A DNA stretch of 35,348 nucleotides from a virus (lineage: Duplodnaviria; Heunggongvirae; Uroviricota; Caudoviricetes), in IMG/VR virus record IMGVR_UViG_2687453512_000002. One strand, written 5' to 3'. A program made the position numbers and the translations under genes. Positions 10,002-10,419 of this stretch are shown here, one piece after another. Every line of letters begins with the position of its first letter. Within the stretch, counting starts at the first letter, position 1. The notes below the pieces were generated by a model that worked only from the letters and a program-made list of their open reading frames with translations, had not been told where the DNA came from and made no database searches.

Positions 10002-10184
10002 GTGAGCAAGTGCCAAAAGTGCAATAACACAGGAATGTGTGATAGCGGAGGTTCTACTCCTTGGGGAGAGCCGATTTTTATTGAATGTGACTGCCTTATG
10101 AAAGATGACGAAAGCAGATGCCAGTTTGAAGAGAGTTGGTTACGACGTGGGGGGCGAATCTTCAGACCTTATCCGTTACCCTGA
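10002..10184 (+). CDS. Cys-rich small protein (60 aa), putative zinc-ribbon; overlaps the next ORF in another frame
   Basis: GGAGG Shine-Dalgarno before the start; CxxC…CxC pattern MSKCQKCNNTGMCD…ECDC. Confidence 0.4.
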   Translation: MSKCQKCNNTGMCDSGGSTPWGEPIFIECDCLMKDDESRCQFEESWLRRGGRIFRPYPLP

Positions 10185-10419
10185 AAATCACCATGAAATT
10201 GGCAGTGGTGATATTGGTGGTCAATACGTGATGGACGATGTTCAAGGCCACTGGCAAACGTGGCAGGCATCGAGAGCAGCTATTGAAATTGAGCTGCAAA
10301 AGCCAAAGAAAGGCCCACTTCCCGGTGATTATCACATTGGCTATGACTCAGGTGCAGAATCGCAATACGAAAGCGATGTAGAGGCTATCCGCGCCGCTGG
10401 AATCAAAGTGAAGGAGTGA
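10105..10419 (+). CDS. Acidic hypothetical protein (104 aa), +1 frame relative to 10002..10184
   Basis: ATG-initiated ORF; overlaps the previous ORF by 80 nt around a G6 homopolymer (10149..10154). Confidence 0.4.
   Translation: MTKADASLKRVGYDVGGESSDLIRYPENHHEIGSGDIGGQYVMDDVQGHWQTWQASRAAIEIELQKPKKGPLPGDYHIGYDSGAESQYESDVEAIRAAGIKVKE

Follow-up and report, generated by a model that had tools for sequence, protein, structure and literature searches.

The closest described relatives of the locus analysed here are intact phage genes, exemplified by those encoding QGF19944.1, WP_024189664.1, URC09321.1, AUM59827.1 and the Sf6 gene 48 protein. These genes are likewise located between a helicase gene and ninB, and their products share with the locus the core ...QFEESWLRRGGESSDLIRYPENHHEIGSG...WQTWQASRAAIE and the C-terminal tail IRAAGxKVKE. 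They differ from it in carrying GGGGG or GGAGG at the Gly-Gly codons, which are read through; the HK022- and Sf6-type proteins also lack a Cys-rich N-terminal module and have other variable middle segments. The sequence studied here is itself found in other genomes, where RefSeq/PGAP annotates a pseudogene ('hypothetical / phiTE_015 family protein, frameshifted'; 10098..10419 in the coordinates used here, + strand), for example EAS44_RS08370 in E. coli ATCC 11775 and ECS88_RS14105 in S88. The sequence and the frameshift call are the same as ours, but PGAP puts the gene start at Met32 (10098). The lesion is also that of the classical +1 G-run insertions of the acridine/ICR type, an extra G in Gly codons, except that it is natural here and not induced. 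Such insertions can be suppressed by sufD, a quadruplet-reading tRNA-Gly; we know of no suppressor tRNA in these hosts.

The window, i.e. the whole stretch of 35,348 nt that was analysed, is a P22-like (Lederbergvirus-type) prophage. It matches the chromosome of E. coli ATCC 11775 (NZ_CP033092.2) from 1522706 onward for 34,722 nt, is identical to it except for one indel and adjoins dsdC/torI. The locus is part of the early-right operon, in which it is preceded by the replicative helicase gene (8334..9710) and a 68-aa ORF (9783..9989) and followed by ninB (10619..11029). A hydrophobic, membrane-like ORF of 63 aa (10416..10607) lies between it and ninB; this ORF is unannotated by PGAP in ATCC 11775, corresponds to a 54-aa CDS in phiv205-1, and a 'membrane protein' is listed in the matched region of some genomes.

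An earlier note, made from the sequence alone, had described the locus as two overlapping ORFs in different frames around a run of six G, and this description is accurate throughout. ORF1 (10002..10184, + strand) starts with GTG and encodes 60 aa, and ORF2 (10105..10419, + strand) starts with ATG and encodes 104 aa. They overlap by 80 nt (10105..10184), ORF2 being in the +1 frame relative to ORF1 [(10105-10002) mod 3 = 1]. Counts made on the translations agree that ORF1 is Cys-rich (6 Cys in 60 residues) and ORF2 acidic (18 Asp+Glu versus 11 Lys+Arg). The GGGGGG run (10149..10154) does lie within the overlap and is the only run of at least six G in the window. The note left three readings side by side: a single gene disrupted by a homopolymer indel (through a sequencing error or as a pseudogene), two genuinely overlapping genes, or a site of programmed frameshifting. 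As judged from sequence comparisons, the first of these very probably applies, and the locus would be one small phage gene split by a +1 G insertion. It would then be a frameshift pseudogene or, at most, an allele with severely reduced function.

Deleting one G from the window yields a single ORF of 138 aa from GTG 10002. The repaired protein is 100% identical to a database protein (P0001) present on 142 public contigs and, except for its start residue, is the gene product of phiv205-1; an intact form close to the ~140-aa protein that the note proposed to look for in homologous phages thus exists. The repaired protein aligns with the profile PHROG 343 without interruption (residues 27-138 to profile positions 28-125, E = 3e-31), and the two ORFs cover consecutive parts of the same profile (residues 25-54 of ORF1 to positions 26-55; residues 27-104 of ORF2 to positions 53-125). 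It is because of this homology, and not of ORF statistics, that the ORF pair can be considered as more than a chance arrangement.

The make-up of both ORFs can be read accordingly. ORF1 (10002..10184, + strand) consists of codons 1-51 of the gene, its genuine 5' part ending with ...WLRRGG, followed by nine out-of-frame codons (RIFRPYPLP) and a premature stop. The true 3' part (10155..10419, + strand), now in the +1 frame, reads ESSDLIRYPENHH...IRAAGIKVKE up to the stop at 10417-10419 and is identical to the C-terminal 87 aa of the intact P0001 (138 aa) and of QGF19944.1 from phiv205-1. The first 15 codons of ORF2 (MTKADASLKRVGYDV; 10105..10148, + strand) are an out-of-frame reading of ORF1 sequence without homology to the family, and the family alignment matches ORF2 only past the G run. 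The junction falls within two conserved Gly codons (...EESWLRRGG/ESSDLIRYPENHH..., the slash marking the junction). According to the alignment and to a motif census, the run that forms the frameshift site at these codons (10149..10154, + strand) has one G more than the GGGGG or GGAGG of relatives; in other words, the indel at the junction is not a multiple of three.

The comparison is the most direct with phiv205-1 (MN340231), which has GGGGG where the window has GGGGGG. This is the sole difference over 9950-10470, and one of only four differences over the 2.1-kb homologous segment (9707-11796). In phiv205-1, a single CDS of 417 nt (QGF19944.1, 138 aa) is annotated over the whole interval. Near-identical prophages (phiv205-1, IMT5155 and EC32) all have five G (G5) and one through-reading ORF, and a syntenic prophage of E. 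coli ExPEC XM also carries an intact, in-frame orthologue. More distant phages show the same organization, whether they have G5, as vB_EcoP-683R2 (one CDS of 144 aa, URC09321.1), or GGAGG, as HK022 (one CDS of 105 aa, HK022_59, AUM59827.1). A tblastn search of 50,697 phage records with the repaired protein matched 48 records; 32 of the matches cross the junction, and all 32 do so as a single piece. A scan of IMG/VR for the exact pattern GGTTRCGACGT-GGRGG-CGAATC retrieved 85 contigs (60 with GGAGG and 25 with GGGGG). In all of them, the site lies within a continuous ORF of 83-146 aa that reads ...EESWLRRGGESSDLIRYPENHH... (two of these ORFs run off the contig end). The form with six G (G6) was retrieved from one contig, in which the frame stops at 60 aa. 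A protein alignment of 33 sequences is likewise unbroken across the site. This uninterrupted frame across relatives indicates that the ancestral state was one gene. The note had held that homologues encoding the same two separate overlapping proteins would speak against a disrupted gene; no such homologues were seen, since all those beyond the near-identical allele encode one protein.

All homologues listed for the repaired protein carry the precomputed Pfam assignment PF26207, PGAP uses the name 'phiTE_015 family' for the locus, and the repaired protein belongs to this family (PF26207 / PHROG 343 / 'phiTE_015 family'; E = 3e-31 to PHROG 343 over the core). The family (loci L014-L093 and proteins P0001-P0120 in our set) is a mosaic that combines interchangeable N-terminal modules, a nearly invariant core of ~55 aa, a hypervariable middle of 20-45 aa and the conserved tail IRAAGxKVKE. 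Scans of the repaired protein against NCBIfam, the local Pfam-A and PADLOC gave nothing useful, presumably because, as far as Pfam-A and NCBIfam are concerned, the PF26207 model is newer or is not an HMM. A sub-threshold match to Phage_tail_2 (E = 0.15) was disregarded. A sequence search of the PDB returned chance matches only (E above 0.7), and the AlphaFold2 model built from the 33-sequence alignment is of low confidence (mean pLDDT 53, pTM 0.35) and does not lend itself to a fold search. No paper on 'phiTE_015' was retrieved from the literature, and none of the papers that mention phiv205-1 appears to deal with this gene.

The 5' end of the gene differs from the one proposed by PGAP. On the G5 allele, PGAP calls a normal protein (WP_024189664.1) of 106 aa from an internal Met, and its start at Met32 leaves 108 nt uncalled. 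A Shine-Dalgarno (SD) sequence, GGAGG (9993..9997, + strand), can be read 4 nt upstream of GTG 10002, and no comparable SD was found in the sequence upstream of ATG 10098 (the PGAP start) or of ATG 10105 (the ORF2 start). The N-terminal module (aa 1-32, CxxC...C...CxC; 10002..10097, + strand), delimited by tblastn, is matched alone at 55-66% aa identity in Seuratvirus, Aeromonas and Pseudomonas phages. In these phages it forms the N-terminus of unrelated proteins, among them annotated ones of 179 and 425 aa. It is internal in the homologue P0026 and is absent from HK022-type homologues. Because of the GGAGG and of the conservation of this module in unrelated phage proteins, GTG 10002, 96 nt upstream of the RefSeq start, is likely to be the start codon and a better candidate than Met32, as far as can be told from the sequence. 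The two ATG codons were rejected as starts, as neither is preceded by an SD whereas GTG 10002 has a GGAGG at the right spacing. These data also suggest that a mobile Cys-rich module, encoded ahead of the RefSeq start, is probably part of the gene.

The same data bear on the proposal that the locus comprises two genuine overlapping genes, encoding a small Cys-rich protein and an acidic protein of 104 aa. Both ORFs are indeed present, and many GenBank records list ORF2 as a protein. However, the ATG of ORF2 has no usable ribosome-binding site, since GAAAG directly abuts it; the first 15 residues of ORF2 and the last nine of ORF1 are unmatched in the family; and none of the relatives has two genes at this place. 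This proposal is therefore unsupported, and the probability that it is correct appears negligible.

Programmed recoding is hardly more probable. According to this hypothesis, G6 would be a deliberate site of +1 (or -2) frameshifting or of transcriptional slippage, from which the 60-aa and the full-length products would be made at a set ratio. At the programmed +1 site of prfB (CUU UGA C, with an upstream SD) and at the -1 sites of lambda G/GT and dnaX, overlapping frames are likewise joined at a short run by re-pairing of the P-site tRNA. Examination of the run for a slippery sequence, as the note had suggested, shows that a comparable event can be drawn on G-GGG-GGC-GAA: the +1 re-pairing of tRNA-Gly from GGG (10149-51) to GGG (10150-52) is perfect and would give the exact wild-type protein. 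In addition, the run is followed in frame 0 by CGA, a codon that E. coli decodes poorly, and the fragment encoded by ORF1 keeps the complete Cys-rich module. However, the known sites are conserved in distant homologues and are associated with stimulatory elements, whereas the two-frame arrangement is limited here to one near-identical allele, the divergent homologues being all in frame, and most relatives have the non-slippery GGAGG (60 of the 85 IMG/VR homologues). Furthermore, the predicted folding of the RNA, both at the site and downstream, does not exceed that of shuffled sequence (z = -0.37 and +0.06), no separate SD-like stimulator is found in the sequence upstream of the run, and six G are far fewer than in the tracts that give efficient transcriptional slippage. 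Programmed frameshifting is thus unsupported, both by the lack of conservation of the split in divergent homologues and by the lack of a stimulator. Some spontaneous leakiness at G-GGG-GGC-GAA is conceivable.

The split could also be a mere sequencing or assembly error, in which case the true sequence would be G5 and the homopolymer would have been miscalled with one G too many in the source of the window. This source does show signs of imperfect assembly, namely a junction between the prophage and a 16S rRNA gene (34722/34723) and a 1-nt deletion in ant (34364) relative to ATCC 11775, and other homopolymers vary among some complete genomes. However, the G6 allele is found far beyond this source. 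The region is present in 205 of 5,426 complete E. coli genomes. An exact match over 80 nt around the run is found in 30 complete genomes for G6 and in 15 for the G5 version; the other matches listed each lack one base relative to the G6 query and so have the in-frame length, and the one read in UTAK-1 is GGAGG. Each of four additional genomes (S88, MS7163, N53 and N62) shows a single difference from the window in 1001 nt, and direct reading of S88 and MS7163 showed G6 together with the SNP A10186C. The carriers were sequenced by many laboratories over many years, and two of them, APEC O1 and S88, are genomes that we take to date from the Sanger era. In addition, the exact 104-aa product of ORF2, which exists only with G6, is encoded by 454 public contigs and its N28H variant by 86, indicating that the G6 allele is real and widespread. 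A run of six bases is also short for systematic miscalling. The same G6 being present in at least 34 independent complete genomes, the sequencing error is rejected, with next to no probability left to it, and among the two forms of a disrupted gene considered in the note it is the pseudogene that holds, the same allele being present in many complete genomes and relatives being intact. Records of carriers name APEC O1, S88, 'ST95-32' and several O1:K1:H7 and O2:K1:H7 strains, which suggests that the carriers belong to the ST95 complex.

Taken together, the following scenario can be drawn for the frameshift pseudogene. In an ancestor, the Gly-Gly codons GGA GGC were changed to GGG GGC, a synonymous substitution that created G5. 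A sixth G was then added in the prophage lineage of the window, probably by replication slippage on the homopolymer. Ribosomes initiating at GTG 10002 would leave the frame after Gly51, read nine wrong codons and stop at 10182-10184. The product would be a 60-aa fragment deprived of the conserved C-terminal 87 residues, and presumably not functional. The resulting pseudogene would have been inherited in a successful E. coli lineage. The frameshift is thus an ordinary, real and lineage-specific one, which is already marked as a pseudogene in RefSeq. Some points weigh against this scenario. Residual full-length protein might still be made through spontaneous +1 slippage of tRNA-Gly on G-GGG-GGC or through RNA polymerase slippage. 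The G6 allele persists in several hundred assemblies, in which its 3' part has not decayed any further, but the sequences have diverged too little for this to carry weight. Finally, a simple single-step tree is contradicted by ExPEC XM, whose syntenic prophage has G5 and whose second prophage has G6.

The case of ExPEC XM (NZ_CP025328.1) raises the question of reversibility. A 6.1-kb replication/nin module (window 6698-12775) is identical in its two prophages (L099, 809050-824050; L100, 2651409-2666409). The gene is intact, with G5, in the copy syntenic with the window, whereas the other copy has G6, and both carry the variant C3411T. The window contains a second homopolymer frameshift. A DUF4752 gene (776..1064, - strand) is split into two ORFs (867..1064 and 776..943) by a run of seven T (T7, i.e. 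A7 on the coding strand) at 908-914. It is intact in phiv205-1, which has T6, and PGAP flags the T7 form as 'frameshifted'. Among complete E. coli genomes, 30 have T7 and 128 have T6, with no strict linkage to G6: FY26, NCTC11151 and AH19K002 have G6 with T6, and the syntenic copy of ExPEC XM has G5 with T7. As all four combinations of G5/G6 and T6/T7 are found, the G6 and T7 events cannot be ordered cleanly.

These data could be viewed as the signature of a contingency tract, in which the run would alternate, within the prophage population, between an on state (G5) and an off state (G6), as in the phase-variable loci of Neisseria, Haemophilus and Campylobacter, where poly-G length likewise sets expression on or off. 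G5 and G6 do occur on otherwise identical backgrounds: the syntenic prophage of ExPEC XM differs from the window at two positions in 15 kb, the run being one of them, and the second prophage has G6 on the identical 6.1-kb module. The occurrence of all four allele combinations points in the same direction. However, the tracts of Neisseria, Haemophilus and Campylobacter are typically of at least 8 bases and present many lengths within a strain; only five or six G are seen here, far short of the tracts at known phase-variable loci, and each length is essentially fixed within its background. In addition, the G6 genomes examined share one replication-module background, which is consistent with a single origin, the exception being the second prophage of ExPEC XM. 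The situation in this strain, which is the only hint of a reversible tract and a weak one, could result from gene conversion, from mis-phasing of the repeat during assembly or from a true reversion. The presence of C3411T in both copies argues for an exchange between the two prophages (or for mis-phasing of the exact 6.1-kb repeat), and either would explain the pattern. A genuine on/off switch is therefore very improbable. A broader view, in which G6 would be a leaky or reversible 'dimmer', with low-level +1 re-pairing or RNA polymerase slippage restoring the 138-aa protein, with the 60-aa Cys-rich peptide as the main product, or with flipping between G5 and G6, is also improbable, if slightly less so. 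If its reversible version were true, the occurrence of the two alleles on identical modules in ExPEC XM would offer a glimpse of the flipping.

The result matters chiefly for annotation hygiene: hundreds of E. coli records contain one of the two ORFs as a 'hypothetical protein', whereas both are pieces of a single gene. The G5/G6 difference could also serve as a lineage marker.

Other genes of the prophage are damaged as well. Besides the DUF4752 gene, the early-left region includes truncated ead/Ea22-like (1322..1633, - strand) and DUF2737 (2446..2529, - strand) genes, as annotated by PGAP on the identical sequence of ATCC 11775; these truncations are further signs of decay in this region. 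The antirepressor gene ant (33600..34567) is split into two ORFs (33600..34370 and 34310..34567) by a 1-nt deletion at 34364 (CCGGCGC in ATCC 11775, CCGCGC in the window). In ATCC 11775, Ant is encoded by an intact CDS of 903 nt; the deletion is thus specific to the source of the window and may be genuine or due to faulty assembly. An IS21-family element in front of the tailspike gene of ATCC 11775 adds to these lesions. The lesions other than the G insertion support the view that accessory genes decay neutrally in a resident prophage, and this prophage located next to dsdC appears to be gathering small inactivating lesions in an E. coli lineage.

At the other end of the window, the homology with the prophage stops abruptly after ...GAAAGGAGATCAC (34722), and the last part (34723..35348) is a fragment of an rRNA operon, which comprises the 3' end of a 16S rRNA gene (to 34997), a tRNA-Glu(UUC) gene (35083-35158) and the start of a 23S rRNA gene (35236-35344, Rfam StyR-44). 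Beyond this point, the prophage of ATCC 11775 runs into an IS21-family element, located before the tailspike gene, and then into this gene. The junction (34722/34723) is a chimeric contig or a rearrangement. Lastly, a run of nine A (5750-5758) is located ~15 nt from the low-coordinate end of the repressor CDS (5774..6424, - strand); it reads A8 in the otherwise identical IMG/VR contig IMGVR_UViG_2588253787_000005, which begins at the very base where the window begins.
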